From NCBI GenBank assembly GCA_018056705.1, contig JAGPFE010000007.1, forward strand, positions 11,220 to 75,219: a DNA stretch of 64,000 nt, in the 5' to 3' direction. A program made the translations under genes and the position numbers. Origin of the DNA: Candidatus Hydrogenedentota bacterium (GTDB taxonomy: Bacteria > Hydrogenedentota > Hydrogenedentia > Hydrogenedentales > CAITNO01). Under the pieces are notes generated by a model. It did not search any database, was not told the origin of the DNA, and was given only the letters and a program-made list of their open reading frames with translations. Shown piece by piece: positions 1 through 62,535 of the stretch (position 1 is its first letter; each line of letters begins with the position of its first letter).

Positions 1-1317
1 GCGTTCCCGTTCCCGGTCGGGGATGAAGTTGTCGTGTTCTGCCAGGAACTGCTGCACCGCGCGCAGGGGGTTGTCTTCAAACCAGGCCTTGTTTCCATGT
101 GGGACGTCATAGAGATACCGGGTAATGGTGTCAAACACAACAAGGTAACTTCCCGGAGTGACCAGGTCGTGGTAACACCTCATCTCGTTTAGCACGTGCG
201 CGTAACTGTGATCGGAGTCCAGAAACACCATGACGGGCCCTGGCACCGTTCGCGTGGCGGAACGAACCTGTTCCACTATCCGTGGATCGGTGGAACTGCC
301 TTCGAAAATCTGGATCATGTCCCGGAAAGGACTGTTGGCGATCCGTCGCCGGGTTTCCTCCGTTATGGTGACATCCATGGTGTAGACTTGTCCTCCCCCA
401 TGCAGCAGGTAAAGCAGGGACGCGAAAAACAGGGCGGATCCGCCCCGGTTGGTACCCGTTTCAACGATCACCCGTGGCCTGATTTCGCTGACCAGTTCCT
501 GGAGGGTCATGAGATCCGTGGGAATCTGCCAGATGGGGTTGCCCAGCCACCGGGCGTTTTTCCAGCACATGCTGACGTAATACCACCTTGAAAGGTTGGG
601 ATCGAAGGCCGAGGGGCTCAATTCACGCCGCCATTCTTCCGGGGTAAAGTCGTGGAAACCGGATACCGAAACCTTGCCCCACTGGTCGTGGTACGCGCGC
701 AGGGTTTCGATCTCCCCGCGCAGGGCCGTTTCCCGGGGATGCACCCACCCGCATCCGGTGAACGTGTCTGGCATGCTGTGTACCGCGCGCTGTACCTGTT
801 CTTTCTCCCGGTCTGTCAGTCTGCCGCCTTTGCGGACTACCGCTATGATGGTATGGGGAAAATCGGGTACGCCCTGGGTCAGGATGATGGGCTCCCCGAT
901 GGGAGCGGTAAGCCGCCGGAACGTCTCGGGGGTGAATCGCCAGTAGTCGTAGGGATGCGCGTGAATGGGATAGTACATTACCGAGACGAGCCATAAAAGC
1001 CCACCCGGAGCCAGAACGCGGTTGACCTCTTCCATGAAATGAAACACGTCATACACGTGCTCCACCGTGTCCAGCGAAATAATCGTGCCGAAATGAGCAT
1101 CCGGGAACGAGGTGCGCTGCTCGAAATTTTCCACCTGGTCGACGCCCGGTCCCTCGCGCATATCCACGGCAAGGTAGGCCTTGTCCCGGAAAAAGGGACG
1201 GATGTCGCCGTAACCTTCCTGGCCCTCCACCTGCAGGGCACCGATTTCCAGGACCGGCTCGGGAACGTCGAAGATCTCCGTGAAACGCCTGACCAGTTCG
1301 CGTGTGTTGGGACGCAT
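1..1317 (-). CDS. Fused methyltransferase: N-terminal class I SAM-dependent methyltransferase domain plus C-terminal CmcI/cephalosporin-hydroxylase-family (sugar O-methyltransferase-like) domain. The 3' end runs off the window.
   Basis: Own minus-strand translation; the frame is missing from the ORF track because it is open at the window edge. N-terminal part: MRPNTRELVRRFTEIFDVPEPVLEIGALQVEG...ISLDTVEHVYDVFHFMEEVNRVLAPGGLLWLVS. C-terminal part: WLGNPIWQIPTDLMTLQELVSEIRPRVIVETGTNRGGSALFFA...VFLDSDHSYAHVLNEMRCYHDLVTPGSYLVVFD. ATG at 1317; the frame stays open upstream to about 1474, so the start is uncertain. Confidence 0.75.
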   Translation of the reverse strand, partial: MRPNTRELVRRFTEIFDVPEPVLEIGALQVEGQEGYGDIRPFFRDKAYLAVDMREGPGVDQVENFEQRTSFPDAHFGTIISLDTVEHVYDVFHFMEEVNRVLAPGGLLWLVSVMYYPIHAHPYDYWRFTPETFRRLTAPIGEPIILTQGVPDFPHTIIAVVRKGGRLTDREKEQVQRAVHSMPDTFTGCGWVHPRETALRGEIETLRAYHDQWGKVSVSGFHDFTPEEWRRELSPSAFDPNLSRWYYVSMCWKNARWLGNPIWQIPTDLMTLQELVSEIRPRVIVETGTNRGGSALFFASLLYLLHGGGQVYTMDVTITEETRRRIANSPFRDMIQIFEGSSTDPRIVEQVRSATRTVPGPVMVFLDSDHSYAHVLNEMRCYHDLVTPGSYLVVFDTITRYLYDVPHGNKAWFEDNPLRAVQQFLAEHDNFIPDRERER

Positions 1318-4220: not shown

Positions 4221-4250
4221 ACTCGACGCGCGTCGTTGCTAATATCCGCA

Positions 4251-4280
4251 CGCCGGAACGCAGAACGTTCCGGCGTTTTG
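4251..4280 (+). terminator. Rho-independent terminator downstream of clpB
   Basis: Perfect 10-bp stem CGCCGGAACG / CGTTCCGGCG with a 5-nt loop (CAGAA), followed by TTTT. It lies 31 nt after the clpB stop. Confidence 0.7.
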
Positions 4281-4283
4281 ATT

Positions 4284-5744
4284 TCAGGTCATACGCCGAA
4301 CGGCAAACAATAGTAAACGAAAGGCCTGTAAAGGATTCCGGGGCAGGCTGTGTCGAAATATGCGTGTCGCGATGCGATAAGCGGTATATGCTCTACCCAG
4401 TACATAATAAAAAGGATTTAAAACAGGTATATTTACATTTATCATTAATCGTATTATTTTATGTAATGGACCAGGTAGATGACAATACAGAGGTCCCAGT
4501 AAACTCATTTTCCAGTGTCGCTGTTTTTCAGGGCTTGTGAAGCAGTCCAAAGGAGGTGTTTGACTAATGTGGGTGGTGGGAACGTTCATCGGGTTAATGA
4601 ACTGGTTTTCAAGACAGTAATCCCACAGGCGCGTGCCGTAAAAAGGCGTGCAGATATTGAAAATGGTGGCGGAAGGTGATACCCGTCGCACAAAGTCAAG
4701 GGAGTAATAATCTGAATCTATCGAAGTACCTGGAATCCCTACCATTGTGCTGGCATAAGTCCTGATCCCGTATTTTCGAGCAATTTCGAAGGATTCGATG
4801 AGCAATTCATCTGTAATGTTCCGCTTTAGAATCCGGTTTCTGATTTCTTCGTTCCCTGCTTCGATGGACATGCCGATACTCACGCACCCCGCTTCTGATA
4901 GAAGTTTCGCGGTCTCATCCGTAAGGGTGTTAGACCTCATGAGACAATAAAACGGTATTCCAATTTCCCTTCGGTAATACTCCGCGAATTTTTCAAGCCA
5001 CGGGTCGGCACGGTGACAGAAAGTATCGTCCGCGAAACGGATAAAGCGTGCTCCTGGGAAATCGCGCTGTGTTTTTTTGATTTCCTCGATAACATTTTCC
5101 ACCGAACGACGCCGGAGTATGGTGCCCTGCCCAGCGAAGAGCTTGTTATACGCATGGTTGAAACAGTATGTACACTGGTATGGGCATCCCCTGCTGGTCA
5201 TGAAGGAACGTAAGCCAGTCTGAACAGCCAGAGGCATAACTCTATAAAATATATGTCGATCAGGAAAGGGAACTTCGTCTAAATCTTGAACCAGTTGGAG
5301 CGAACAGGGATTTTTCAAGCCCTTTGGGATCACGTTGGGTATGTTATCAAGGGATTTTCCAGATACCAGTGCTTCTAGGATCGCAGGAAAAGCCAGATCT
5401 CCTTCGCCGATACAAATGGCGTCAAGATCCAACTCTTCCAAGATATTTGGATAAAAAGTTGGGTGGGGACCGCCCATGATTCTGAAAGGAATCTTTTCAC
5501 GGTTTTGCCGTAGCCCGGCAACAAGATCACGATCCTCTGTTGCAAACAACGTTATGTCGGCACTGGACGCACTGTACGCCACTATGTTCGGTCGCAACCG
5601 CTGGACCGCGGGTAACAATTTCCCTGGACGCAGTAAAAGAATGTGCGCTTCATGTCCTGATCGCCGCGCAAGGGCGGCAAGGATCATAATGCCCAAGGGT
5701 TCCATCAAAAACGGTAACGCGATAACAAGCAGCACGCGCATCAA
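4284..5744 (-). CDS. B12-binding-domain (class B) radical SAM protein, paralog 3 of the operon
   Basis: N-terminal Rossmann-like block MMRVLLVIALPFLMEPLGIMILAALARRSGHEAHILL; radical SAM motif SRGCPYQCTYC (CX3CX2C). The start overlaps the upstream stop (5741-5744). Conspicuously AT-richer than its neighbours. Confidence 0.9.
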   Translation of the reverse strand: MMRVLLVIALPFLMEPLGIMILAALARRSGHEAHILLLRPGKLLPAVQRLRPNIVAYSASSADITLFATEDRDLVAGLRQNREKIPFRIMGGPHPTFYPNILEELDLDAICIGEGDLAFPAILEALVSGKSLDNIPNVIPKGLKNPCSLQLVQDLDEVPFPDRHIFYRVMPLAVQTGLRSFMTSRGCPYQCTYCFNHAYNKLFAGQGTILRRRSVENVIEEIKKTQRDFPGARFIRFADDTFCHRADPWLEKFAEYYRREIGIPFYCLMRSNTLTDETAKLLSEAGCVSIGMSIEAGNEEIRNRILKRNITDELLIESFEIARKYGIRTYASTMVGIPGTSIDSDYYSLDFVRRVSPSATIFNICTPFYGTRLWDYCLENQFINPMNVPTTHISQTPPLDCFTSPEKQRHWKMSLLGPLYCHLPGPLHKIIRLMINVNIPVLNPFYYVLGRAYTAYRIATRIFRHSLPRNPLQAFRLLLFAVRRMT

Positions 5745-7213
5745 TTATGTTCTTTCGCGCTGAACACGTCAACTTCTTCTGAATACTGAAAAGAGAGCAA
5801 TCCTTTCGTGGCCCGGTAGCAGAAAATGGGAAGATAGGCGGGCAGCATCCACGACTGGGGATGGGATCGCATAAGACGCGCGATACGACGTGGGCTGGAG
5901 TAGAATTTTCTGAAGGCTTTACGCTGGTACGCGAATAGAACGTCATCTGGCAGGTCGGTGAGGTTGACCCGCATGCCCGAAAAATCCATGTCATTGTAGC
6001 GCAGGCGGGAGAGTTTTTCCGGATGAGTCTGGGCAACCATGTCGTACAGTGGGGTGCCCGGGAATGGAGTTACCGTGTAAAATGACGCGGTGTGGAAAGG
6101 TGACGCGCACGCGGTATCAATGGTAAGTTGCATCTCTTCTTCCGTTTCCGTGGGAAATCCGAGCATACAGAAAACATTACAATATACGTGCTTAGCAGTA
6201 GCGTATGCTCCGGCTTCAAGCAACTTGGCGATGTTCAGATTTTTGCAGGTGTATTTCTGCAATCTCGGCGAGGCCGTCTCAAGGGCGAAAGACGCCTGGT
6301 ACATTCCAAAACTGACCAGGGCATCAATGACCTCGTGGGTCAACAGGTCGGAGCGTAAGCCCGTAGGAAAGCAGACACGGGTTTTAAGGTTTCGTTCCTT
6401 GATCAGGTCGTGTATGGCCAGCACCCGCTTGGGATAGAAATTAAAATTGTCATCCAGGAATTCGAAATCGTTGATGCCGTAGGTTTTCATCAGCCATGCG
6501 ATTTCCTCGACGACCCGTTCGGGGCTGTGCGTCCGGATGGCCTTGCGGAAAATTTTGTGGCACCAGATGCACTGGTACGGACACCCCCGGCTGGAGACCA
6601 GCGAAGCGTAACGGCGCCGATAGACGGGAGCAATCGATTGTTTACGCCAGTAGGCTGGCAGGTCGATCAGGTCCCAGGCGGGCATGGGAAGGGTATCCAG
6701 TTCTTCAACCTGCGGTACCAGCCCCGGGTTGATGGTAATATCTCCGTTCGTGTCCCGCCAGATGAGCCCAGGAATATCGCTGAAATCGCGGGTTCCCTCC
6801 ATGTATCGCTGCAATACCGCGGTGGTGATCAGTTCGCCCTCTCCAGGCACGACCACGTGGGCCTCGCATTCGTTCAGCACGTGGGCCTTGGCGGATGACG
6901 CGTGGGGGCCGCCTACCATGATCAACGCGTTGGGCAGGGCGGCCCGCGCCTGGGAAACGGCTGCCGGTAAGAAATGACTCGAGGTGGTAAAACAGGAAAA
7001 TCCGACCACATCCGCTTCAAAATCCCTGGCCCGGCGAACTACTTCTTCAACCGGACAATTTTCAAGTCTCTGGTTGATGATCCGCACATCCACAGGAAGG
7101 TGTTCGCGGAGATAGGCGGCAAGGGCCAGCAGTCCCACGGGTGGGGTCACCAGGGGGAACGTCCGGGTGTGCCTTCCGAGGTTGGCCAGAAAGACGCGCA
7201 GCCTGCTGCTCAT
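5741..7213 (-). CDS. B12-binding-domain (class B) radical SAM protein, paralog 2
   Basis: PPVGLLALAAYLREH...VVGFSC...MVGGPH B12-binding-like N-terminus; SRGCPYQCIWC motif. 4-nt overlaps with both flanking radical SAM genes. Confidence 0.9.
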   Translation of the reverse strand: MSSRLRVFLANLGRHTRTFPLVTPPVGLLALAAYLREHLPVDVRIINQRLENCPVEEVVRRARDFEADVVGFSCFTTSSHFLPAAVSQARAALPNALIMVGGPHASSAKAHVLNECEAHVVVPGEGELITTAVLQRYMEGTRDFSDIPGLIWRDTNGDITINPGLVPQVEELDTLPMPAWDLIDLPAYWRKQSIAPVYRRRYASLVSSRGCPYQCIWCHKIFRKAIRTHSPERVVEEIAWLMKTYGINDFEFLDDNFNFYPKRVLAIHDLIKERNLKTRVCFPTGLRSDLLTHEVIDALVSFGMYQASFALETASPRLQKYTCKNLNIAKLLEAGAYATAKHVYCNVFCMLGFPTETEEEMQLTIDTACASPFHTASFYTVTPFPGTPLYDMVAQTHPEKLSRLRYNDMDFSGMRVNLTDLPDDVLFAYQRKAFRKFYSSPRRIARLMRSHPQSWMLPAYLPIFCYRATKGLLSFQYSEEVDVFSAKEHN

Positions 7214-8748
7214 AACGGGTTTGAATCCTGTCGGTTCAAGGTTACACGGCCAGATTCACATGAAACTTTATTATTCGTTGAAATTCTATCATGATTTTCA
7301 CATAAAGCGGAGTTTCGACGGGGAAGTAATCCCCGGGCCCACATTCGGAGCGCATACCGCCCGCCACTGATGACCCTGCGGAAATACCAAGGATGTCTCA
7401 GTTTTAAAGCGCTTTTCACCAGGTAGGATGGGCGAAAATAAAACGAGATGTAAGCCTCGCGCACCATGGCTGCCAGAGTTTCCGCGTCTGGATAGGTGTT
7501 GGGTACATAGGACGGTTGCACAAAGGTGTTGTTCCATGGAACTTTTTGTCCATGGGCCAGAGCGAAAGATTCCAGTTCGACGCCTGGCCAGACATGGAAT
7601 GGGATAAACTGGGCGAAATCGATACCCAGTTCACAGGCAAACCGAATGGTTTTCCTGGACATTTCCGGGGTTTCTGTCGGGAGGCCGAGAATGAAACTGC
7701 CACGGATTTCCATGCCGGCCTCTTTAGCCCAGGCTACCGCCTCCCGGACCTTGTCCACCGTGTATCCCTTGTCGATCAGGTCCAGCAGTTCCTGGTTACC
7801 CGACTCGATACCGTAAAAGATGTTGTAACATCCGGAAGCGGCCATTCGTCGCAGCATGGTCCGCGTAACCGTGCGCACGTGACCCTCGACCGTCCACGCG
7901 AAGCGTAATTTTTCCCGGTCGATCAGGTCACAGAATCGTTCGATCCATTTTTCGTGGATACAGAAATTGTCATCGAAAAAAATGATCTCCCGGTATCCCA
8001 GGTCGCGGGTCAGCCACCGGATTTCATCGATGCAATTTTCTGGAGATCGACGCCGGTAGGGGTGGCCATAGCACGACCGGTGGTAACAGAACCTGCACCG
8101 GGACCACGGACATCCCCGAGAGGTGAGCATCGTGGCCACAGGATGGTAACGGCCCTGGCTGGGGAGGGGACGATATAAGTTGCGGTCGTACAGGTCCCAG
8201 GCCATGATCGGCAATTCATCCAGGCGTTTAACCGGTTCATGAGGAGGGCCGAAAATCCATTCGCCCTGCGGGCTCCGGCAGTCGACTCCCGGAAGTCCCG
8301 TGGGATTCCGGCCGGCATCGATGGCATCCACGTAGTCCGCGAAGGTCCATTCCGCTTCCCCGGGAAACAACGCGTCTATTTCCGGGCACTGCTCCGGAAT
8401 TCGCGTATGAAACGCGGTCACGTGGGGACCGCCCATGGTCAGGATCAGGTCTGGTTTTTCCCGCCGGAGCACCCGGGCCAGATCATACGCCGCGCCCGCC
8501 CGCGCGGTAGTACATGAAATGCCGACAATTGTTGGTTGCTCACGGAGAACGGCTCGTGCCGCGTCGTTCACGTCGTATCCGAGGGCGGGGCTGTCGATAA
8601 GAACCACGTCATGCCCCCGTTTTCGCAAGGCCGCCGCAAGGTACCCCACACCCAGCGAGGGAAGAATCCCTTCCCTCATGGAAGATTTTCCGCCCCATGA
8701 ATGCCCCAGGTTGAAGGGTGTAACGACCAGAACGACTCGAACCGCCAT
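7210..8748 (-). CDS. B12-binding-domain (class B) radical SAM protein, paralog 1 (first gene of the operon)
   Basis: LPSLGVGYLAAALRKRGHDVVLIDS...GISC...MGGPH N-terminus. The cluster motif reads SRGCPWSRCRFC, a CX4CX2C spacing checked at nucleotide level. This differs from the CX3CX2C of the other three paralogs in the window. Confidence 0.9.
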   Translation of the reverse strand: MAVRVVLVVTPFNLGHSWGGKSSMREGILPSLGVGYLAAALRKRGHDVVLIDSPALGYDVNDAARAVLREQPTIVGISCTTARAGAAYDLARVLRREKPDLILTMGGPHVTAFHTRIPEQCPEIDALFPGEAEWTFADYVDAIDAGRNPTGLPGVDCRSPQGEWIFGPPHEPVKRLDELPIMAWDLYDRNLYRPLPSQGRYHPVATMLTSRGCPWSRCRFCYHRSCYGHPYRRRSPENCIDEIRWLTRDLGYREIIFFDDNFCIHEKWIERFCDLIDREKLRFAWTVEGHVRTVTRTMLRRMAASGCYNIFYGIESGNQELLDLIDKGYTVDKVREAVAWAKEAGMEIRGSFILGLPTETPEMSRKTIRFACELGIDFAQFIPFHVWPGVELESFALAHGQKVPWNNTFVQPSYVPNTYPDAETLAAMVREAYISFYFRPSYLVKSALKLRHPWYFRRVISGGRYALRMWARGLLPRRNSALCENHDRISTNNKVSCESGRVTLNRQDSNPL

Positions 8749-8842
8749 TACGCGTTCCGCGGAATTTAATCCTTCTGCCTTGCTTTGTTACAATTATACT
8801 TTCCAGAATTCATTTCAAGGTAACTTTTTGGGAGACCGGCCC

Positions 8843-9826
8843 ATGGATGGCGCGGTGATGGGTATAGGTTCCCCTATTGTGGATCTCCTGGCGCGGGTAG
8901 ATGACTCGTTCGTGGAAGCGGCAGGAGGAGGCAAGGGGGGGATGATGCTGGTGGACGAACAGACGATGGCATCGCTTTGTTCCCGTCTGCCAGAGTCACC
9001 GGAACGCGCGCCCGGGGGATCCGCCGCCAATACGGTTCGCGCGATGGCCGGGCTGGGCCGGGAGGCGTGGTTCCTGGGAACGGTGGGAGATGATGAGGCA
9101 GGCGCGTTTTACCGGAACCGGTTTGAAGCAGATGGGGGGCAATCCGGGCGGATTCGGGTGGTGCCCGGTCGCGCGACGGGCCAGTGCCTTAGCCTGATCA
9201 CGCCGGATTCTCAGCGCACGATGCGAACCTGTCTCGGGGCTGCCCAGGCGTTACGACCGGAGATGATCACGCCCGAAGATTTCGAGCACTGCGCGCTGGT
9301 TCACGTGGAAGGATACCTGCTGTACGATCGCGCCACCGCCTTCAAGGCCATGGAAACCGCCCGCGAGGCAGGGTGCGCGGTCAGCCTGGACCTGGGATCC
9401 TTCGAGGTGGTGGAAACGTCGAAGGATATTCTGCCCGATCTTCTGCGGGACTGGGTAGACATCGTGTTTGCCAACGAGGACGAGGCCGCGGCGTTGATCG
9501 GGAAAAGTGATCCCGAGGCCGCGCTGGAAGCGTTACTTTCGCTGACGCCCACGGCCGCGGTGAAACTGGGCGCGCGGGGGGCGCTGCTGGGACGGGGGGA
9601 TGAGCGAGAGCGGGTGCCGGCGGTGCCCGCGCGCGCCGTGGACACCACGGGCGCGGGAGACTGTTGGGCTGCCGGCTTTCTTCATGGGTGGCTCGCGGGA
9701 TGTTCCCTGTGGTGGTGCGGGATGGCGGGTGCCGTTCTCGGGGCGGAAGCGGTGAGCCGGGTGGGCGCGGTGCCGGAGGGTGACGCGTGGCCGCGGATCC
9801 GGACACGGCTGGATAACCTGCAATAA
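8843..9826 (+). CDS. PfkB-family kinase, probably adenosine kinase
   Basis: Real part of track ORF 8435..9826, starting [16 protein letters not shown] after GGGAGA. GGSAANT and DTTGAGD ribokinase/adenosine-kinase motifs. Sits directly upstream of ahcY. Confidence 0.75.
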
Positions 9827-48788: not shown

Positions 48789-49703
48789 TTACCGGATCAG
48801 TCCCAGTAGAATGGCTATGCAACCAGCCAGCCAGAGGGCCACGGTGAGCATCAGGGGATAATCGCGCAGGAGGGTCCTGCTGGGATCGCCTCCATCCTTT
48901 CCCAGGCGCAGCAGCCAGAGGTACCGTCCAAGACCGTACACCACGAATGGCAGGGTCAGGTACATCTTGTCCGTTCCCACCCGGCTGACCACTTCCTGGG
49001 AACAGGTATAGATGGTGTAACAGACCATGGCCGCCCCGGCGACCAGCAGGATCATGGCATCCAGGAAGTCCACGGTATAGTCGTCATACACCGCGCGATG
49101 CTCTTTCGCGTCGGCGTCTAGGATGGCCAGTTCGTGCCGGCGCTTTCCCAGGGCCAGGAACAGGGCCAGAAAGAGCGTGCAGACCACCAGCCAGTTGGAG
49201 AAACGCACGTCAATGGCCACCGCTCCACCCGTGGCGCGCAGGACGAACCCCATGGCCACGCTCAGGACGTCGATCAGCAGCAGATGTTTCAGACCCAGGG
49301 AATAGGCGGCCATGAGGGTGACGTATCCGCCCGCTACCAGGGCGAACCGGCCACCCAGCAGCACCGCTCCCGTCATGCCGGATGCCAGCAGCAGGCCGCA
49401 CAGCACGATGGCCAGGGGAACGGATACGGCCCCGGATGCCAGGGGACGGTTACGCTTATCGGGGTGTAACCGGTCCAGTTCCCGGTCCCGCAGGTCGTTG
49501 AACACGTATACGGCGCACGACAGCACGCAGAAAACACCTGCCGCGGCCAGCGCGCGGACAACGGATTCCGGGTTGCCCATTTCCTGGGCGAACACGAGGG
49601 GCAACAGAACCACGCCGTTTTTGGTCCACTGGTAGGGCCGCAACAGCCGGATGAGCGCGTTCGCCCCGCCAGAAATGGCAGGTGTATCCGGGTGGCTGTT
49701 CAT
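48789..49703 (-). CDS. UbiA-family prenyltransferase, decaprenyl-phosphate phosphoribosyltransferase-like (DPPR synthase)
   Basis: Real part of track ORF 48789..50228, starting MNSHPDT in an ATGA overlap. LLRPYQWTKNGVVLLPLVFA, NDLRDRELD, multiple TM helices. Synteny with DprE1 and DprE2. Confidence 0.85.
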   Translation of the reverse strand: MNSHPDTPAISGGANALIRLLRPYQWTKNGVVLLPLVFAQEMGNPESVVRALAAAGVFCVLSCAVYVFNDLRDRELDRLHPDKRNRPLASGAVSVPLAIVLCGLLLASGMTGAVLLGGRFALVAGGYVTLMAAYSLGLKHLLLIDVLSVAMGFVLRATGGAVAIDVRFSNWLVVCTLFLALFLALGKRRHELAILDADAKEHRAVYDDYTVDFLDAMILLVAGAAMVCYTIYTCSQEVVSRVGTDKMYLTLPFVVYGLGRYLWLLRLGKDGGDPSRTLLRDYPLMLTVALWLAGCIAILLGLIR

Positions 49704-50461
49704 ATGTTGGTCCGCACGAACAGGAGTTCCGGAATGACGCGCACGGCCAGCATGATCCAGCGCCACCATCCTGGCACGTAAACCACCCGTCGGCCCGCCA
49801 GAACGGCGTTTACGGCCGGGGCAGCCACCCGTTCCGGGTCGGTGACCAGCGGCGCGGGCAACTCCATCCCCGCCACCATTTTCGTGCGGAGGTATCCCGG
49901 CTTGATCGTGGTGACCGTGACCCCCGATCCGTGGAGTCGGTGGCGCAGTCCCTCGAGGTAGACATTCAGACCGGCCTTGGCCGCCGCGTAATGGTAGTTC
50001 GATTTGCGACCACGGTCGCCCGCGACCGATGTGACCACGCCCAGGAAGCCAGCCCGCCGGGCTTCGAACTGGTTCACGAACGGATCCAGCGCGGTAATGA
50101 TTCCGGTGAGGTTGGCGGTCAGGCAGGCCCGGGCCAGGGTGGAGTCGTGGCGGACCTGTTCCGGGTCGGGGAGCAGGCCCACGCAGGATATCACCCCGTC
50201 CGGTAGGCGGCCGAGGATGTCCCGACAACGGTCGGGCAGGCTCGCGTGATCTTCTGGACGTTCCGCGTCGTAACGCAGGACGGGCACGCTGACACCACTT
50301 CGGACCTCCAGATCCCGCGCGATTTGCCGCAGGGCCTCCTCATGGCGACCCGAGAGAAGGGGAAGCCATCCCCGGCGGAGGAATTCCCGGGCCACGCGCA
50401 CGCCAAGGTCCGATGTTCCGCCGAGGATCAGCACGGACGGCATATAGGTTACATCCGCCAT
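49700..50461 (-). CDS. dprE2: SDR-family reductase, DprE2-like (decaprenylphospho-2-keto-ribose reductase)
   Basis: VLILGGTSDLGVRVAREF, YAAAKAGL (YxxxK). GGAGG upstream of the ATG at 50461. Sits between the DprE1-like and UbiA-like genes. Confidence 0.8.
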   Translation of the reverse strand: MADVTYMPSVLILGGTSDLGVRVAREFLRRGWLPLLSGRHEEALRQIARDLEVRSGVSVPVLRYDAERPEDHASLPDRCRDILGRLPDGVISCVGLLPDPEQVRHDSTLARACLTANLTGIITALDPFVNQFEARRAGFLGVVTSVAGDRGRKSNYHYAAAKAGLNVYLEGLRHRLHGSGVTVTTIKPGYLRTKMVAGMELPAPLVTDPERVAAPAVNAVLAGRRVVYVPGWWRWIMLAVRVIPELLFVRTNI

Positions 50462-50488: not shown

Positions 50489-51856
50489 TTATTTTCGATC
50501 ATCCCATCCAAGCCGGTCCGACAGGTCGGAGGCGAGGGTTCGTCCGGGGTCAACCTCCGCGCGGACTGCCAGAAATTCTTCCAGCCGGGGGTACATCGCG
50601 GCAATGGTATCCGGCAGGGCCAGCGCGTCCTTCGCCAGGTACAGCCGGCCTCCCCAGTCCAGCAGCAACCGGTCGCATTCCCGCAGAAAGCGATCCAGTC
50701 CCTCCCGTACCGGGAAATCCAGGGTCAGGGTATAACCCGGCATCGGGTGGGACAGCATGCCGTTTCCCGCCGATCCGAATCGTTTGAGGACGCCCAGGAA
50801 GGACGCGAATCCCGCGGTGTTGCAACGCCGGAGCAGGTCTGCCAGGCCCTGTCCCGAGGCGGGAGGAACGGTCGCCTGGTACTGGACGAAGCCCCGGCGG
50901 CCGTACATGCGGTTCCAGTTGGCGACGCTGTCCAGGGGGAAGAAATAGCGATCCATGTCGAGGAAGACCCGGCCGCGCGCGCCGAATCTCCGCCAGTTCA
51001 GCGCGTTGAACAGCCGGACGGACGTGGGATTCAACAGCCACTCGGGCATGTTTACCGGGACGTTGAGTCGGGCCCTGCGCGGCATTCGCAACGGGTCGGC
51101 ACAGGGACCAGGGGGCAGGGCCGAGGCGGGCAGCCAGTTCCCCCGGGTAAGAACGGTACGCCCCTGTCCACCCTTCCCGATGGCGTCTACCCAGCCGACG
51201 GAAAACCGGTAGCCGGCGTCCGTGGCGTCCATGACCACCAGGGCTGACGCCAGGTCGGGGCACATTTCATATTCCACCTCGAGCCACGCGCTCTCGATCC
51301 GTTCCAGGCGCAGGCGCGCGTTCAGAATAATGCCCGTCAGGCCGACTCCACCCACCGTGGCCTCGAACAGGCGGGGTTCCGAACCGGGACCACACCGGAC
51401 CACGCCCCGCGCCGGCGTGAGCAAGTCAAAATCCACCACGTGGTTGCAGAAGGATCCGTCCACGTGATGGTTCTTGCCGTGCACGTCGTTGGCGATCGCG
51501 CCGCCCACGGTGATGTGGCGGGTTCCGGGCACCACCGGCAGGGTCCATCCCCGGGGCACGAACCACGCGAGAATTTCAGAAAGGGTGACCCCCGCTTCGC
51601 AATCGAGGATGCCGTTTTCGGGATCGAAATCCCGGAAGCCGTTCATGTCCGTCATGTCGAGAATACCGCCACCCGTGCGCTGGGCGGCATCGCCGTAACT
51701 GCGGCCCATGCCCCGGGCCAGTTTCGGCTGGATATCGGCCGCGAGGGCGGCTTGAACCTGTTCCGGGTCACGCGGGTGGCACACGCGCGCGGTAGCGGGA
51801 TGGTACCGTCCCCATCCCGACAGGGTTTCCGTCGTCCATCGCAACGTTCCGCTCAT
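50489..51856 (-). CDS. dprE1: FAD-dependent oxidase, DprE1-like (decaprenylphosphoryl-beta-D-ribose 2'-oxidase)
   Basis: LSGWGRY, ARGMGRSYGDAA, PGTRHITVGGAIANDVHGKNHH, ATVGGVGLTGII, GGRLYLAKD. Collinear over its full length with M. tuberculosis DprE1 as I recall it. Confidence 0.9.
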   Translation of the reverse strand: MSGTLRWTTETLSGWGRYHPATARVCHPRDPEQVQAALAADIQPKLARGMGRSYGDAAQRTGGGILDMTDMNGFRDFDPENGILDCEAGVTLSEILAWFVPRGWTLPVVPGTRHITVGGAIANDVHGKNHHVDGSFCNHVVDFDLLTPARGVVRCGPGSEPRLFEATVGGVGLTGIILNARLRLERIESAWLEVEYEMCPDLASALVVMDATDAGYRFSVGWVDAIGKGGQGRTVLTRGNWLPASALPPGPCADPLRMPRRARLNVPVNMPEWLLNPTSVRLFNALNWRRFGARGRVFLDMDRYFFPLDSVANWNRMYGRRGFVQYQATVPPASGQGLADLLRRCNTAGFASFLGVLKRFGSAGNGMLSHPMPGYTLTLDFPVREGLDRFLRECDRLLLDWGGRLYLAKDALALPDTIAAMYPRLEEFLAVRAEVDPGRTLASDLSDRLGWDDRK

Positions 51857-51900: not shown

Positions 51901-53115
51901 TCACGTTCCGACGTTTGCCCGGGGCCCGGACAGGGCCTCCACCATTCTGGGCAGGAAGGTTTCGATCAGGATCCGGTTACCCTGCTCGTTCAGGTGGCAG
52001 TGATCGGAAAACAGGGTCTCTCCCGGTACGCCATGGGGCTCACGGGCGCAGATGGTGGCTTCCACGTCCGCCAGGGGTACCTGCCATCGCTCGGCCACTT
52101 CGCGGATGATCCGGTTTTCCTGGTCGGAGGACTGGTGCCGGGGAGAGGCTTCCGCCAGGATTTTACGCGCCAGTTCCAGGCCTTCCTGCCATCGACCACT
52201 TTCGTACAAAGGGCGTACCTCCCGCTCGAACCGTTCGCCCTCGGGACCGGGCAGGTTCGGTTGGAACAGGTTGGAAGGCACGGTTCCGATGACCACGGGA
52301 ACACCCGCTTCCCGGCACAGCCGGATGATGGATTCGAGGTTTGCCCGGTACGCGTCCATGCGCCCGGCTATTTCTTCGGGCGTGAACCGGTGAAGCCAGG
52401 CCTTGGAAGCGTCGGGTACCGACAGGGCCAGTTCGCGCCGCCGGCGGTCCGCCTCCAGTTGGCCAATCGCCCTGCGGGCCTGAAAATCCCGGATGAATCG
52501 GTACAGGGCGCTCCGGGACAGGGCGCGCTGCACCCGAACCTGTTCCACGCCGGACAGGTGCAGTTGCTGCAGTTCTTCGAACTCGTTATGGCCCGAGTAG
52601 ATCATAACCAGGTCCAGGTCGTAATGCAGGACTTCCCGCGCCACGAGTACGAGACGGTGGGAACCGTAGGACAGGCCGCCGCAGTTCAATACTTCCAGGT
52701 CGTTGAATCGTCCGTTCAACGCGGGAAGCAGGGTTTCACCCAGCCGCGAAAACTCGTAGTGCAGGTAGTTCACCGAGGATCCGCCCAGGGCGGCCAGCCG
52801 GAGGGTTCCCGGAACCTTGATCCGGCGGAAGCGCTGGTTCTGAAAACTTACCAGTCGATCGGGATTCACGCGCATGTACAGCCGGTCCCCGGGATCGGGC
52901 TCAAACAGGCGAACTGACGCGTCGAACCCCTGGCCAAGGTCGACCCGCATCGGGGGATTCCACATTTCCCAGAGCCGGGCCGCGCCTTCCAGTGCGCCCA
53001 GCAGCATCAGCGTGGCGAAAAGGATCCACACGACGCTGAACAGGATCGATGGAGACGGTCGCGGTGACTGGGCCACCGGGTCAGTAGACATGGGTTGTTC
53101 CCGTGCTTCGCTCAT
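51901..53115 (-). CDS. Membrane-anchored SGNH/GDSL-like hydrolase or acyltransferase, paralog 1
   Basis: TM segment ILFSVVWILFATLMLLGAL. Blocks ALGGSSV, NCGGLSYGS, YSGHNEF and FSDHCHLN. Confidence 0.7.
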   Translation of the reverse strand: MSEAREQPMSTDPVAQSPRPSPSILFSVVWILFATLMLLGALEGAARLWEMWNPPMRVDLGQGFDASVRLFEPDPGDRLYMRVNPDRLVSFQNQRFRRIKVPGTLRLAALGGSSVNYLHYEFSRLGETLLPALNGRFNDLEVLNCGGLSYGSHRLVLVAREVLHYDLDLVMIYSGHNEFEELQQLHLSGVEQVRVQRALSRSALYRFIRDFQARRAIGQLEADRRRRELALSVPDASKAWLHRFTPEEIAGRMDAYRANLESIIRLCREAGVPVVIGTVPSNLFQPNLPGPEGERFEREVRPLYESGRWQEGLELARKILAEASPRHQSSDQENRIIREVAERWQVPLADVEATICAREPHGVPGETLFSDHCHLNEQGNRILIETFLPRMVEALSGPRANVGT

Positions 53116-54356
53116 TTCCTCGGTTCCAGCAGATGATTTTCCCGCAGGAACGATTCGAGTCGCGGCGCGAACAGTTCAGCCAGCAGGGCGTGGCCCTTCG
53201 CGGTGAGATGACCATCGAAACGGAAAAACAGGTCGGGGTCTTCCGAGTGGGCGAGGAACCCCTCGCTTACCGTGAAAAAAGGCAATCCGGCAAGGGCAGC
53301 CGCCTGCCGGGGACCCTCGTCGGCATTGCGCGCGGTCATGAGACCGGGATCCGTTTCAAAGCCCACCCTGGATATGGCCTCCAGGGCATGGCGGTTCACG
53401 TATGGACCGTCAGGAATGGACAGGACGATTACCGTGGCCCCTTCCTGTTCCGCAGCCCGCCGGATCCGGATCAACTGGTCCGCCATGTTCTTGACGCACT
53501 GACGGATCCAGGGATCTTCCAGGTTCATCGGCAGCATGTAAATTCGGGGATTTTTCAGGGCGAGATCGATCATGTAGGGATTGAATTCCCCCCGGAAGAA
53601 GGCTTCGCGGACTTCCGCCGCGATCGTTTCGAATTTCGCCTTTTCCTCCGGGGTCATCTTCTCGTAAAAATCGCGCGCCGTGTTTTCCTGCCACCGGCGA
53701 TTATCCTCCTCGGAGCTGACCTGGGGCGGTGTTTCCTGTTTTCGCGCGTCCCCAAGACGGGCCAACCGGGCATTCCGGATCCATCGCATGGTGTTCGGAA
53801 ACAGGGTCCAGGCCCATTGCCTGATTCGACTGACCGGCGCCAGGGTCACCTCCGGGCCCGCGCCGGCAAGGTCGTTACCTTGCAGAATGCCCACCACCAC
53901 CAGTTTCGGATGAACGATCGGCAATCCTTTTTCGGCTATCTCGGCGTAAAAGGGCGGTCCGCTGCCGGGCTTGCCCATGTTCACGGTGAACACGGGATAG
54001 CCCCGATCAAGCAGGTACTGCTCTGTTTTTCGCAGCCAAGTGTCTTCGGCTTCCACGCCCCAGCCGTACGTGTAAGAATCCCCGATGGCGGCGACGCGGA
54101 AGAGCCTGGGATCCGACGGCAGTTCCCGTTCCCGCAGGCCGATACGGTTGATCCGGGCTGTGTAGGCGAATTCCATGGACCGGAAATGCTGTTCCGCCCC
54201 GGGTGGAAAAATCAGTTCCAGGGTACCCCGTACTTCTGGCGGGATCATCATCCGCCCCAGGACGCGGTCTCCGGCCACGGCCAGCAGGCACACCAGCAAT
54301 GGCGCGCCTGCCAGGGTGAACAGGGTGAACAGCGCGGTTTTCAGTCCGGATCGCAT
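53112..54356 (-). CDS. Membrane-anchored SGNH/GDSL-like hydrolase or acyltransferase, paralog 2
   Basis: MRSGLKTALFTLFTLAGAPLLVCLLAV anchor. Blocks AAIGDSYTYGWG, NMGKPGSG, ILQGNDL and FRFDGHLT. ATG at 54356 preceded by GAGGA; the track GTG at 54401 is the alternative. Confidence 0.75.
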   Translation of the reverse strand: MRSGLKTALFTLFTLAGAPLLVCLLAVAGDRVLGRMMIPPEVRGTLELIFPPGAEQHFRSMEFAYTARINRIGLRERELPSDPRLFRVAAIGDSYTYGWGVEAEDTWLRKTEQYLLDRGYPVFTVNMGKPGSGPPFYAEIAEKGLPIVHPKLVVVGILQGNDLAGAGPEVTLAPVSRIRQWAWTLFPNTMRWIRNARLARLGDARKQETPPQVSSEEDNRRWQENTARDFYEKMTPEEKAKFETIAAEVREAFFRGEFNPYMIDLALKNPRIYMLPMNLEDPWIRQCVKNMADQLIRIRRAAEQEGATVIVLSIPDGPYVNRHALEAISRVGFETDPGLMTARNADEGPRQAAALAGLPFFTVSEGFLAHSEDPDLFFRFDGHLTAKGHALLAELFAPRLESFLRENHLLEPRK

Positions 54357-54460
54357 TGCCGGGGAGTCCTCACGGGTACCGCGCGGAGGGTTCACGTCCA
54401 CGCGGGGATTGCGGTTCCATTATATGTTAGTGTCATAATGACCCGGCAAGGCATCACGTA

Positions 54461-56788
54461 ATGACGGGAAGCAATCGTCTCATGATGACACCAGTCCCGG
54501 CGCAACCGTCTCAGGTCCTCAACCCGCCCGGGTTCGGCAACAGCATAAACTGGCGGTTTATCTTGGTATTTTTCGGAATCCTGCTTGTGGGCCTGGCCGT
54601 CCGGGTCCAGGGATTGGGCCGCGAATCAATATGGTGGGATGAATTTACCAGCGTGATGCACCTGCAGCCGCCTTCGGCCTGGCAGGCGTCCCCGGACTAC
54701 TCCCGGTGGAACCAGCAGGTGATCCGGGAAACGACCCCGTCGCTCATGGCCTTCTGGCGGCAGAACCGGACGCTCGATCCCGCCACCATGCCCCTGTATT
54801 ACACCTTTGAGTACCTCTGGAACCGGTACCTGGACCATGACTGGGCGTCACTTCGGTGGCTGTCGGTTTTCATAGGCATGCTGCTGTTGCCCGCGGCGTT
54901 CGCGCTGGGCGCGGTGTTCTACGGTCGCTGGGCGGGCCTGCTGGTTATGGCATGCGTGGCGCTGTCTCCCATCCATGTCCAATTTTCCCGCGAGATCCGC
55001 ATGTACGGCCTGATGACCCTGCTGGCTGCCCTCTCCATGCTGACATGGGTGTTGCTTGTGCGCACGGGACGGGTTCGATGGTGGCTGGCGAATGGCGCGG
55101 TGGCCCTGTTTCTCCTGTGGACCCATCCGTTCGCGATCCTGGTGCCCTTCACGCAGGGTTTGTGCTGGCTGGTACTGTTCCCCCGGGATTTTAATCGCCT
55201 GTTTCTTTGGGGCTTGTGGATGCTGCTGGCGTTCGTCCCGATCACGGTGTACGTCATGTCGATCCAGTTCTGGCAGCGGGATACCACGGATTCCTGGATG
55301 CGGATTCCCCTGTGGCATGAATTCCTGGGGGACCTTTTCGGAGATGATGCCATTGGCGCGACCTACCAGTTGTACGCCACGTCCGGGTTCTGGGAAAAGA
55401 TACTGCCGGACGATCTGGTGGTGTCCGTGGTCCGCGCGCGGTGGACCATTGCCCGGGTCTGGATGGTTTTCACTGCGGCGGTCGCGATCTGCGTGCCCCT
55501 GCTGAGCGTATGGAAGAAATGGCATTTCCGGCGACAGGCCGGCGGCGACACGGCAGCAGATTCTCCGGCTGCTTTCGGTGATGCCCGACAGGTTCTGGTG
55601 GGATTCGAATTCCGCTGGACCCTGGTGCTCGTGGCGTGGATGCTGCTGCCGCCCCTGGTGCTGCTGGCGGCGTCATGGGTGTGGCGGCCGTGCATCATGC
55701 CCCGGTACACGCTGCACGCCTCGCTGGCCCTGTACGTGCTTCTGGCGGGGTGGATTGCCCTGCTGCCCGGGCGCACGCTTAAAACCATTTTCACGGCGGC
55801 AGTCCTGGGATTTTTCCTGTACCAGCAGACCCTCCTCTGGGGTGGGCCCCAGCATCCCGACTGGCTCAGGGCCCGGCAGACGCTGGCCGAGCACGGCAGA
55901 CCCGACGATGTGCTTCTCGTCCACAACTGGTTGTGGAAACGGGTATTCGCCTGGAACCTGGGTCCCTCCGACCACGTGGTCAGTTACGGCGACCGCTGGG
56001 ATTCCCTGGCGGCCATGGCGGACCTGGTCAGCCGGTTGAATCTGCCTTCCACCGCGGGAGGTGGGCCGCGGATACCATGGGTAATCCTGCAGACCGATTA
56101 TTTCGCCCAGGGGCCGGTTCCGGAACTGGAGGCGGAACTGGCCGCGCGGGGGCTGGCCTGGCAGTACTGGGAGTACCCGGCAATTCAGAATGTTGTCCTC
56201 TACCGGGTTTTTCCAGCCAGCCCGGAAACACGCCCCCTGCGTGAATTCCCACTGCCCCGGCCGGGAGATCCGGCGGAACGGGAACGCTTCGCTAAGGAAG
56301 TTGCCGATCTTTCGCTGGAATTCTGGCGCAACGGGGAGTATGAAACCGCCGCGGCCGTCGCCCGGACCGCCACGGAGATCGATCCGGGTTACGTGACCGC
56401 GTGGTCCTATCTCGGGATGGCCCTTAAAGAAATCAACGCGGTCACGGAAGCGATCGAGGCCTTTCAGCGGTCTACTGCCCTCAATCCGTCCGCCTACCCG
56501 TGGGACCACCTTAACCTTGCCCAGTTGCTGATGGTCCGGGGGGATCATGAAGGGGCCCTTGCGGCCGCGCGGGAAGGGCTCAAGTTGCTGCCGAACGATT
56601 CATGGGGCCATACGGTGCAGGGCATGGCCCTTGAGGGACTGGGGAGGTTCCAGGAAGCGGCCGAAAGTTATCGCCGGGCGATCGAACTGGATCCCGGTGA
56701 CACGAGACCGCGGGATGCCCTCGCGGCCATCCAGGAAAAATTGACCATGCAGGATCCCCTTGGCGCGCCTTCCGGGGGACAGCCATGA
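54461..56788 (+). CDS. GT-C fold glycosyltransferase (PMT_2/GT39/ArnT-like, about 10 or more TM helices) fused to C-terminal TPR repeats
   Basis: First-loop acidic motif GRESIWWDEFTSV. Many hydrophobic helices through about residue 520. C-terminal TPR-like EYETAAAVARTATEIDPGYVTAWSYLGMALKEINAVTEAIEAFQRSTALNP... Confidence 0.85.
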   Translation: MTGSNRLMMTPVPAQPSQVLNPPGFGNSINWRFILVFFGILLVGLAVRVQGLGRESIWWDEFTSVMHLQPPSAWQASPDYSRWNQQVIRETTPSLMAFWRQNRTLDPATMPLYYTFEYLWNRYLDHDWASLRWLSVFIGMLLLPAAFALGAVFYGRWAGLLVMACVALSPIHVQFSREIRMYGLMTLLAALSMLTWVLLVRTGRVRWWLANGAVALFLLWTHPFAILVPFTQGLCWLVLFPRDFNRLFLWGLWMLLAFVPITVYVMSIQFWQRDTTDSWMRIPLWHEFLGDLFGDDAIGATYQLYATSGFWEKILPDDLVVSVVRARWTIARVWMVFTAAVAICVPLLSVWKKWHFRRQAGGDTAADSPAAFGDARQVLVGFEFRWTLVLVAWMLLPPLVLLAASWVWRPCIMPRYTLHASLALYVLLAGWIALLPGRTLKTIFTAAVLGFFLYQQTLLWGGPQHPDWLRARQTLAEHGRPDDVLLVHNWLWKRVFAWNLGPSDHVVSYGDRWDSLAAMADLVSRLNLPSTAGGGPRIPWVILQTDYFAQGPVPELEAELAARGLAWQYWEYPAIQNVVLYRVFPASPETRPLREFPLPRPGDPAERERFAKEVADLSLEFWRNGEYETAAAVARTATEIDPGYVTAWSYLGMALKEINAVTEAIEAFQRSTALNPSAYPWDHLNLAQLLMVRGDHEGALAAAREGLKLLPNDSWGHTVQGMALEGLGRFQEAAESYRRAIELDPGDTRPRDALAAIQEKLTMQDPLGAPSGGQP

Positions 56789-60789: not shown

Positions 60790-61063
60790 GAGACGCGCTG
60801 CCTCCACTTGTATCGAGTTGTTTTTACATTTTTGTCAATAATATACGCCGTGCCGCCCATGGAAATACAACCATAACCAGAGCCCCGGCACGTTTTTTTG
60901 TGAAAGAATAATACTGTCCACCGTGTTCGCCCAGGTAAAGTATCAAAAAAGGAACATGGCCGACATGCGCGTAATCGGCAGGCAAGCAAGGCAGGATATC
61001 CCATGAATATCGTTCTGCTGAACTCGTGTTGTATCTCGCCTTCCCCGGATCCCTTTCAGCGGT

Positions 61064-61152
61064 TGACGCCCCATCTGCGGGTGGGGGTCGCCCGTACCCG
61101 GGCGAGTCCAGCGTCTCCCAGCCGTGACGCCCCATCTGCGGGTGGGGGTCGC
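61064..61152 (+). repeat. Two identical 28-bp direct repeats separated by 33 bp, inside the 5' end of a radical SAM gene
   Basis: TGACGCCCCATCTGCGGGTGGGGGTCGC at 61064-61091 and again at 61125-61152, checked base by base. Offset is 61 nt, which is not a multiple of 3. Confidence 0.9.
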
Positions 61153-62443: not shown

Positions 62444-62535
62444 CGCGTGGATGGCGCCCATGGAAGTGATTTCACGGTCGTTATTGGGAGAATGGCGTGT
62501 CTTGTCGCATAATGACCTGGATTGGAGGTTATGCC

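Follow-up and report, generated by a model that had tools for sequence, protein, structure and literature searches.

Within a 64,000-nucleotide stretch of contig JAGPFE010000007.1 from a Candidatus Hydrogenedentota bacterium, hereafter the window, three consecutive genes (A, B and C) encode radical S-adenosylmethionine (SAM) proteins with a B12-binding domain that reach the cut-off of no curated subfamily. A and B form a conserved, functional core under purifying selection, while C is an accessory, strain-variable gene. In other genomes, orthologs of all three genes recur beside predicted envelope-glycan genes. The most likely role of the unit, which we propose tentatively, would be to tailor envelope sugars, or sugars linked to a lipid, in the cytoplasm; the substrate class, the reaction type, the use of cobalamin and the order of action are those that we infer below.

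Three class B-type genes outside the curated subfamilies

In each of the three proteins, a B12-binding domain at the N-terminus is joined to a radical SAM core, and the cassette is placed between clpB and a divergent pfkB-ahcY pair (Table 1). At the A/B junction, TTATGAGC, the TGA stop codon of A and the ATG start codon of B have the four nucleotides ATGA in common (7210-7213). At the B/C junction, AATTGATGCGC, the motif TTGATG offers two starts for C. The TTG at 5744 gives a 4-nt overlap with B, and the ATG at 5741, which is the next codon and the one chosen in the public annotation (485 aa), gives an overlap of 1 nt (TGATG). B and C abut whichever start is right. Thus, of the two 4-nt overlaps described in the first-pass annotation, that between A and B stands, and that between B and C holds only with the TTG start.

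The unit contains no other gene, and the absence of a substrate gene from it was read correctly at first. Neither the 94-bp region between A and the start of the PfkB-family gene at 8843 nor the 63-bp gap downstream of C (4221-4283), which reaches the clpB stop codon, has room for a peptide open reading frame (ORF). Most of the 63-bp gap is taken up by a hairpin with an 11-bp stem, 8 of whose pairs are G-C, followed by a T-run; this is the intrinsic terminator of clpB, a gene convergent with the cassette. In the 94-bp region, a consensus scan called no sigma-70-type site. A perfect TATAAT was found there by eye on the minus strand (8798-8793, 44 nt 5' of the ATG of A), with no -35 hexamer at the canonical spacing, and we make no promoter claim. 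Searched against Rfam at gathering thresholds, the whole window gave no match, and hence no cobalamin, SAM or S-adenosylhomocysteine (SAH) riboswitch.

The G+C content is 56% in A, 55% in B and 47% in C, as compared to 60-66% in the flanking genes, and the G+C content at third codon positions (GC3) is 0.62, 0.66 and 0.48, respectively, as compared to 0.70-0.79 in most neighbouring genes. Pairwise identity among the three proteins is 25-28%. They have been called paralogs, but because of this low identity the term holds only in a deep sense, and the three appear to have diverged anciently.

The two domains were detected well above their Pfam gathering scores. PF02310 (B12-binding) scored 70.2, 80.2 and 52.1 bits in A, B and C against a gathering score of 32.1, and PF04055 (Radical_SAM) scored 80.9, 58.9 and 85.5 bits against 29.5. 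Together with the ORFs, these scores bear out the initial description of one compact unit of three class B-type genes. A, B and C may use cobalamin; no diagnostic sequence motif exists for cobalamin binding.

In A, the cluster motif is CX4CX2C (GCPWSRCRFC, with C213, C218 and C221 as the cysteines), whereas B, C and paralog D, a fourth gene of this kind elsewhere in the window, have CX3CX2C, as already read from the sequence in the first-pass annotation. The CX4CX2C spacing and all three cysteines are invariant in 121 of 121 A-family sequences. Among representatives at 50% identity, this spacing is confined mostly to the best ~40 hits, and CX3CX2C dominates further out. The CX4CX2C motif therefore marks a coherent clade, and is no one-off of A. 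The A clade also has four extra conserved cysteines, namely C121 in 93% and C273, C307 and C372 in 95-99% of its members. An auxiliary Fe-S cluster was considered; C273, C307 and C372 fall in different secondary-structure elements of the A model. The B clade has no conserved cysteines apart from the three cluster ligands.

The AlphaFold2 model of A, the only one of the three proteins that was modelled, was calculated with 43 homologs as input and has a predicted local distance difference test score (pLDDT) of 89.6. In a Foldseek search it matched AprD4, MgmA, TsrM, OxsB, TokK and CysS, with E-values of 1e-20 to 4e-25, so that its predicted fold corresponds to that of the solved class B enzymes. 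The C-terminal tail of ~40 residues (474-512; window 7210-7330) has a pLDDT below 50 and is missing from most homologs, which are 467-490 aa long. This extension creates the ATGA overlap with B; in the related contig L093, A ends 53 nt before the start of B. Signal peptides and membrane spans are lacking in A, B and C, and all three are predicted to be cytoplasmic.

In contrast to these superfamily features, no subfamily assignment was obtained. The curated subfamily test compares the NCBIfam score with the cut-off of each model, and none of A, B and C reaches any cut-off, their best scores being 99-185 bits against cut-offs of 360-750. This check had been called for at the outset, and it places none of the three in a characterised subfamily. 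The top NCBIfam match of A and C is HpnJ (TIGR03471; 184.7, 101.0 and 98.8 bits for A, B and C against a cut-off of 577.6), with residues 49-450 of A aligned to positions 48-446 of the 472 in the profile. The top match of B, and also of D, is ApyD (NF050148; A 163, B 147 and C 78 bits against 750; D 188 bits). The remaining models gave, in the order A, B, C and cut-off, 156, 117, 57 and 481.35 bits for BchE (TIGR02026); 133, 68, 46 and 281.85 for the PoyB/C type (TIGR03975); 100, 83, 79 and 650 for HpnR (TIGR04367); 86, 73, 89 and 360 for the ladderane-lipid model (TIGR04072); 73, 68, 75 and 500 for AprD4 (NF033070); and 71, 82, 67 and 360 for MgmA, the methyl-coenzyme M reductase (MCR) glutamine C-methyltransferase (TIGR04014). 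In addition, B scored 134 bits against 575 with the Sden_1168 model, and C scored 98 bits against 600 with the PhpK model. Domains, cluster cysteines and predicted fold thus place the proteins in the superfamily, and every subfamily model excludes them.

Homolog searches with A, B and C at E <= 1e-20 returned about a thousand relatives each, and one query gave 7,332 representative clusters (50% identity) at E <= 1e-30. The top 120 relatives of each gene are 40-96% identical and nearly all metagenomic. The few named ones come from Hydrogenedentes, Nitrospiraceae, Thermodesulfobacteriota, Phycisphaerae, Patescibacteria, Bacteroidales and Magnetococcus. Each of A, B and C belongs to a separate large clade in uncultivated bacteria. 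Public pipelines often name such proteins "BchE" or "YgiQ". BchE, the anaerobic Mg-protoporphyrin IX monomethyl ester cyclase, is in the same large unexplored superfamily group as A, B and C (PMC12931638), but there are no photosynthesis or tetrapyrrole genes near the cassette, and the "BchE" label on these proteins is an over-annotation.

A conserved A-B pair and an accessory third gene

The arrangement (ahcY-pfkB) / A / B / ... / clpB recurs in five related contigs. The A-B pair is found at the same site in L089/L090/L094, L091/L092, L093, L095 and L097, and the nearest named relatives are 'Candidatus Hydrogenedentes' metagenome-assembled genomes (MAGs). The ratio of nonsynonymous to synonymous substitution rates (dN/dS) against these relatives is 0.05-0.15 for A, 0.04-0.17 for B and 0.04-0.17 for A and B together, like that of clpB and pfkB. 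Given the shared syntenic site in five contigs and these dN/dS values, the pairing of A and B is not a chance arrangement.

The divergent pfkB-ahcY pair shares this conserved locus, which raises the alternative of nucleoside or SAM-cycle chemistry coupled to it, either as an OxsB-like rearrangement or as methylation with local clearance of SAH. The divergent arrangement is kept in L001, L089/L090 and L093, and L091 keeps a homologous upstream fragment. The ahcY product scores above the cut-off of its NCBIfam model (657 against 498), SAH is given off by class B methylases, and OxsB is among the structural matches of A. However, the adjacency is limited to one narrow clade and may be inherited synteny; pfkB and ahcY do not recur beside more distant A, B or C orthologs. 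Moreover, ahcY behaves as a housekeeping gene, with a dN/dS of 0.015-0.035, and the window has no SAH, SAM or cobalamin riboswitch in Rfam. We therefore regard such coupling as very unlikely.

As compared to A and B, gene C is less stable. Aligned by blastn to the strain represented by L089, the window matches at 14000-5801 (96.1%) and at 4276-1 (98.5%), with nothing between, so that L089 has 88 bp in place of C and the last ~20 codons of B. The left edge of this indel coincides with the clpB terminator hairpin. L091, a Hydrogenedentes MAG whose B is 86% identical, carries A-B only. In L093, where B is 84% identical, C is in place, but its B12-domain region is frameshifted and the gene is a pseudogene. 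By contrast, A, B and C are all present in L097. The dN of C against relatives (0.18-0.28) is 2-3 times that of A and B (0.07-0.10), and its dS is saturated. This pattern of presence, loss and decay indicates that C has been at the site since before the lineage split and is repeatedly being lost. Thus, the selected unit is A-B. The adjacency of the genes in relatives, which was to be checked, is conserved for A and B and variable for C; neither of the two findings that were to refute the first-pass reading was made. The absence of C from L089 and L091 and its decay in L093 contradict an obligate three-step pathway, as had been implied by the idea of a three-enzyme cassette.

It follows from the same data that C could be a non-functional or dispensable passenger in the strain of the window itself, leaving a two-enzyme operative unit. 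Its deletion in L089 and L091, its frameshift in L093, its elevated dN and its lower GC3 (0.48 against 0.62-0.66 for A and B) all point that way. On the other hand, C in the window is intact and full-length; both domains and the cluster motif are in place, and the gene adjoins B. A full-length homolog that is 72% identical (P0241) exists, and L097 also has the complete A-B-C unit. On balance, a passenger role seems rather unlikely.

Clusters with two or three class B paralogs that carry out successive modifications of one scaffold provide a precedent for the unit, and include BotRMT1-3, PctJ/N/O, ThnK/L/P and PoyB/C (PMC12931638). These clusters, however, encode the scaffold as well, in the form of a precursor peptide, polyketide synthase/nonribosomal peptide synthetase or aminocyclitol genes, whereas the A-B-C cassette consists of its three genes alone and can do without the third.

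Envelope-glycan neighbourhoods and the candidate substrate

To place A, B and C in a wider genomic context, we compared 80 loci from species-representative genomes, collected with a B-family profile, and 80 metagenome loci, collected with an A-family profile, together with single look-ups for homologs of A, B and C. Among the 80 metagenome loci, in which the A orthologs are 37-52% identical, a family 2 glycosyltransferase (GT2) gene lies directly upstream in 11 and a class-I methyltransferase gene in 11. Further recurrent neighbours of A orthologs encode TPR, GT4, PMT_2 and DUF2298 proteins, AsnB-like amidotransferases, and a protein with 9-10 transmembrane segments and no Pfam match. After dereplication at 80% identity, a glycosyltransferase is found within two genes in 14 of 47 groups, and some glycan-type gene in 22 of 47.

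Orthologs of B (at least 45% identity) have a polytopic membrane protein directly adjacent in ~8 of 11 non-redundant loci. Five of these neighbours belong to PMT_2, often with TPR (L006, L007, L008, L013 and L131/L134), and three, for which 6-10 membrane spans are predicted, match no Pfam family. All three contexts examined for C orthologs (L006, P0251 and P0273) abut a PMT_2 or PMT_2+TPR gene. Across the orthologs of the three genes, the recurring families are GT2, PMT_2/TPR glycosyltransferases of the GT-C fold class, GT4, class-I methyltransferases, AsnB-like and HisH/F-like amidotransferases and a carbamoyltransferase, which are most readily recognised as envelope-glycan machinery. Several Hydrogenedentota-type contigs share one arrangement, with GT2, A, an unknown gene and an esterase on one strand and PMT_2, (B), an unknown gene, HisF, HisH and a carbamoyltransferase on the opposite strand. 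A DegT aminotransferase, another radical SAM gene and an LPG_synthase_TM gene are found near this shared A/B cluster. The B ortholog between PMT_2 and a 383-aa gene is present in some of these contigs (L131/L134) and absent from others (L135/L145/L146), and this presence or absence within a glycan cluster mirrors the behaviour of C in the lineage of the window.

A comparison with more distant genes of the same loci gave a similar picture. Among the 122 genes immediately beside B-family members, 11 encode radical SAM, 7 GT2 and 6 PMT_2 proteins, whereas in 129 control genes lying over 5 kb off, neither glycosyltransferase family ranks with the frequent ones (Fisher p = 0.02 for the near-versus-far enrichment, with the control set at its upper bound). 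A further recurrent neighbour, a 763-aa "cluster 4" protein in 9 loci, was discarded as a probable artefact; its representative (L049, 9437-11728, minus strand) overlaps a radical SAM gene antisense and has no Pfam hit. A literature search for B12 radical SAM genes together with envelope-glycan genes found no description of the association, most subscription journals being beyond its reach.

The reading that we favour takes these neighbourhoods as its guide. The substrate would be a sugar, or a saccharide anchored to polyprenyl phosphate or a lipid, that is bound for the cell envelope. Because A, B and C carry no signal peptide or membrane span, it would have to be reachable from the cytoplasm, and the modification would precede the step at which, outside the membrane, GT-C transferases of the PMT_2/TPR type pass on the product. 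As known from the ArnC/ArnT and Gtr systems, polyprenyl phosphate is charged with sugars by GT2 and GT2-GtrA enzymes at the membrane's inner face, and the sugars so linked are used outside by PMT_2-type GT-C enzymes. In the simplest model, the sugar would be modified between GT2 loading and GT-C transfer, or as an NDP-sugar just before. Radical SAM enzymes require SAM and a low-potential electron donor. The chemistry would probably take one of two forms, either C-methylation at an unactivated carbon of the sugar, C-methylation being the most frequent reaction among class B enzymes, or a radical rearrangement or dehydration of the sugar, comparable to those of HpnJ, Cds and AprD4. A and B would be the selected working pair, and C an optional third step that is being lost.

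Among known enzymes, HpnJ offers a close parallel. It is hopanoid-associated and is proposed to contract the glucosamine ring of bacteriohopanetetrol (BHT)-glucosamine, a lipid-linked sugar; Cds is likewise proposed to contract the ring of a lipid-linked sugar (PMC13459092). HpnJ has the same two-domain architecture as A, and in Mycetohabitans hpnJ stands after the GT2 gene hpnI and before an LPG-synthase-TM gene, much as A comes after GT2 in the Hydrogenedentota cluster of A orthologs, with LPG_synthase_TM nearby. However, HpnJ of the Mycetohabitans megaplasmid is only 28.5% identical to A, no closer than BchE, and has the motif CX3CX2C instead of CX4CX2C. The hpnI-hpnJ-hpnK context is also lacking, as no hopanoid genes stand beside the A-B-C cassette. 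Membership of A in the HpnJ clade was therefore ruled out by score, motif and identity. The GT2 genes 5' of A orthologs were also considered as HpnI-like, and gave no match at E < 1e-3.

Carbohydrate substrates are known from other members of the superfamily as well. AprD4 (6FD2), a radical SAM 1,2-diol dehydratase that acts on the aminoglycoside sugar of paromamine, is the top structural match of A (TM-score 0.79, target-normalised). It is also the best Protein Data Bank (PDB) sequence match of A, B and C (E 2e-17 to 5e-21), at an identity of ~20%, followed by MgmA (9CCB), TokK, OxsB and CysS. GenK, GenD1 and MoeK5 methylate unactivated sugar carbons, MoeK5 doing so on a lipid-linked saccharide. 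GenK, GenD1/GntE, Fms7 and MoeK5, which we compared by description and not by sequence, are class B C-methylases of the same superfamily as A, B and C (PMC12931638). These enzymes belong to actinomycete antibiotic pathways, whereas the orthologs of A, B and C stand among envelope-glycan and GT-C genes.

Several points weigh against a role in sugar tailoring. In the window and in the five close relatives, the cassette adjoins no glycosyltransferase gene, its neighbours being clpB and pfkB-ahcY, and the nearest glycan-type module is 46 kb off and has a radical SAM gene of its own, D. The argument is thus one of guilt by association, drawn wholly from orthologs elsewhere. Even there, glycan-type genes lie within two genes in only ~30-47% of the dereplicated A-ortholog neighbourhoods, and the near-versus-far control is modest, with many neighbours unannotated. 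The target of the PMT_2/TPR partners could also be a protein, lipid A or another lipid. Finally, the N-terminal domain of AprD4, the best PDB match, binds no cobalamin (PMC12931638), and for this reason neither cobalamin use nor methyl transfer can be assumed, notwithstanding that A, B and C score well above the Pfam B12-binding threshold.

The polytopic neighbours would also suit enzymes that modify the core of membrane lipids by alkyl, isoprenoid or hopanoid methylation, cyclisation or cross-linking, as HpnP/HpnR, GrsA/B, Gmm and the ladderane enzymes do. Many lipid-modifying class B enzymes are known (PMC13459092), and HpnJ, HpnR and the ladderane model TIGR04072 are among the NCBIfam matches. 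These matches nevertheless remain far under the cut-offs (79-100 bits against 650 for HpnR and 73-89 against 360 for TIGR04072), and HpnJ, the best match of A, has the sugar head group as its target, not the chain (PMC13459092). Furthermore, the annotated neighbour families include no fatty-acid, isoprenoid, squalene-hopene cyclase, ether-lipid or tetraether gene, and the sole family of the short-chain dehydrogenase/reductase (SDR) or enoyl-ACP-reductase type, in 4 loci, is a generic dehydrogenase. A role in lipid-core modification is therefore improbable. Since no lipid-synthesis gene recurs beside the orthologs, while envelope-glycan families do, the alkyl-chain methylation of membrane lipids suggested in the first-pass annotation finds no footing here, and should not be carried forward without new evidence.

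The TPR domains of the partner proteins bring in a further alternative, given that such domains bind proteins. In this case, A, B and C would modify a peptide or protein, either as enzymes of ribosomally synthesised and post-translationally modified peptides (RiPPs) or as protein C-methylases such as ApyD, PoyB/C, MgmA and Mmp10, perhaps on a protein that is later glycosylated by the TPR-bearing GT-C. B and D both have ApyD as their best NCBIfam match (147 and 188 bits), MgmA ranks second or third among the PDB matches, and SPASM and other radical SAM genes lie beside distant paralogs. Yet the scores are far under the cut-offs (750 for ApyD, 282 for TIGR03975 and 360 for MgmA), and the 94-bp and 63-bp gaps cannot encode a precursor. 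No leader peptidase, C39 ABC exporter or RiPP recognition protein is found among the annotated neighbours, in a set of related loci in which ORFs below 90 aa were not called. We consider peptide modification to be distinctly improbable, and retain the tailoring of envelope sugars as the favoured role.

Other genes of the window and the wider family

Gene D lies outside the operon, in a region of the window that has its own predicted glycosylation module (Table 1). This setting of D speaks for the favoured role. The decaprenyl-phosphate phosphoribosyltransferase encoded there has an extra N-terminal region of ~190 residues, and its gene adjoins that of the DprE1-like oxidase. Together, a decaprenyl-phosphate phosphoribosyltransferase and DprE1 catalyse the first steps of the actinobacterial decaprenyl-phospho-arabinose pathway, whereas the genome here appears to be one of Hydrogenedentota. 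The GT2-GtrA protein of the module is 61% identical to a GT2 (L013, 1798-2907) in the cluster of a B ortholog, and the families of its PMT_2+TPR, GDSL and GT2-GtrA genes are also found next to A, B and C orthologs elsewhere.

Table 1. Positions of the cassette, its flanking elements and the module around paralog D in the window
Feature	Position	Strand	Remarks
Gene A	7210-8748	-	512 aa; first gene of the unit; ORF and Pfam
Gene B	5741-7213	-	490 aa; ORF and Pfam
Gene C	4284-5744 (or 4284-5741)	-	486 aa (or 485 aa); ORF and Pfam
Divergent intergenic region, A to pfkB-ahcY	8749-8842		94 bp; PfkB start at 8843
clpB terminator hairpin	4250-4276	+	11-bp stem, 8 G-C pairs, then T-run
Indel segment	4277-5800		gene C and last ~20 codons of B; 88 bp instead in L089
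Decaprenyl-phosphate phosphoribosyltransferase	48789-50228	-	UbiA family; NF008977, 277 bits against 234
DprE1-like FAD oxidase	50489-51856	-	488 bits against a cut-off of 500
GDSL protein	51901-53115		
Uncharacterised protein	53103-54461		452 aa
PMT_2+TPR polytopic GT-C	54461-56788	+	9 membrane spans; Pfam
Second GDSL protein	56785-58389	+	Pfam
GT2-GtrA fusion	58292-59482	-	Pfam
HATPase_c_3 protein	59533-60807		
Paralog D	61124-62443	+	the window's fourth gene for a B12-binding radical SAM protein; identity to A, B and C 25-33%; not in the operon
GFO/IDH/MocA oxidoreductase	62497-63807		

On the other side of the cassette, a mechanically listed ORF (8435-9826, plus strand) overlaps A on the opposite strand; the real PfkB-family kinase has 327 aa. 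It reaches no NCBIfam cut-off, and the name "adenosine kinase" would be a mere guess from the ahcY neighbour. Just past clpB, a 595-aa fused methyltransferase runs off the start of the window (1-1317, minus strand; L001, 15897-17684). It consists of a Methyltransf_11/23 domain and a domain of the CmcI/rhamnosyl-O-methyltransferase type, and is kept in all relatives, although L091/L092 carry it as two separate genes (251 and 326 aa). We made no use of a possible tie between this CmcI-type protein and the methyltransferases beside A orthologs, as its N-terminal domain is ~30% identical to them over ~140 residues, a generic class-I similarity.

The stacking of paralogs turned out to be common in the family. 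At least two B12-radical-SAM genes lie within 10 kb in 46 of 84 loci, in stacks of 2-8. Arrays of seven or eight consecutive paralogs occur in unrelated MAGs (L024, 1-10319; L045, 1386-14664; L067, 1889-13998), some members of the L045 array being separated by gaps of 0.4-1.3 kb. In addition, there are giant single-chain proteins (926-2633 aa) in which 2-5 B12-radical-SAM modules follow one another, every module having a CX3CX2C of its own (P0365, P0367, P0399, P0402, P0391, P0411, P0498, P0387 and P0413). These multi-module fusions give a hint that stacked paralogs may cooperate. Since unassigned class B genes are very common and paralog stacks are frequent, a specialist would not be surprised by three such genes with no substrate gene among them.

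A glycan-type cluster with several such genes is also found in a cultured organism. By its curated annotation, plasmid pDCAR1 of Solidesulfovibrio carbinolicus (L176, 66129-86013) carries four radical SAM genes, three of them with B12 domains, together with genes for an epimerase/dehydratase, acyltransferases, a glycosyltransferase, a sialate O-acetylesterase, a SIS-domain protein and a PfkB-family sugar kinase. The host is a sulfate reducer, and could provide a tractable genetic model for such enzymes.

What is new here is the delimitation of three clades, one of them marked by a CX4CX2C that does not vary, the indel and decay of C among strains, and the repeated association of all three clades with GT2 and GT-C envelope-glycan genes. 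Class B radical SAM enzymes comprise ~84,000 sequences in over 100 groups, of which the biggest are still unexplored (PMC12931638, a 2026 review), and the link of the three clades to GT2 and GT-C offers a concrete, testable substrate class for a sizeable part of this space. In its most specific form, the proposal would be that A, B and C represent three unrecognised clades acting on sugars linked to polyprenyl phosphate, or anchored to a lipid in another way, at the inner membrane face, yielding C-methylated or rearranged sugars that PMT_2/TPR GT-C enzymes install on envelope targets; in this form we hold it to be possible but doubtful. If true, it would define a widespread route to branched or rearranged envelope sugars that is independent of NDP-sugar C-methyltransferases and spans the uncultivated phyla Hydrogenedentota, Nitrospirota, Desulfobacterota, Planctomycetota and Omnitrophota. 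The paralogs would then be shuffled, stacked or fused as interchangeable modules that diversify the cell surface, and radical C-H chemistry would belong to the primary biosynthesis of the cell surface in phyla never brought into culture.

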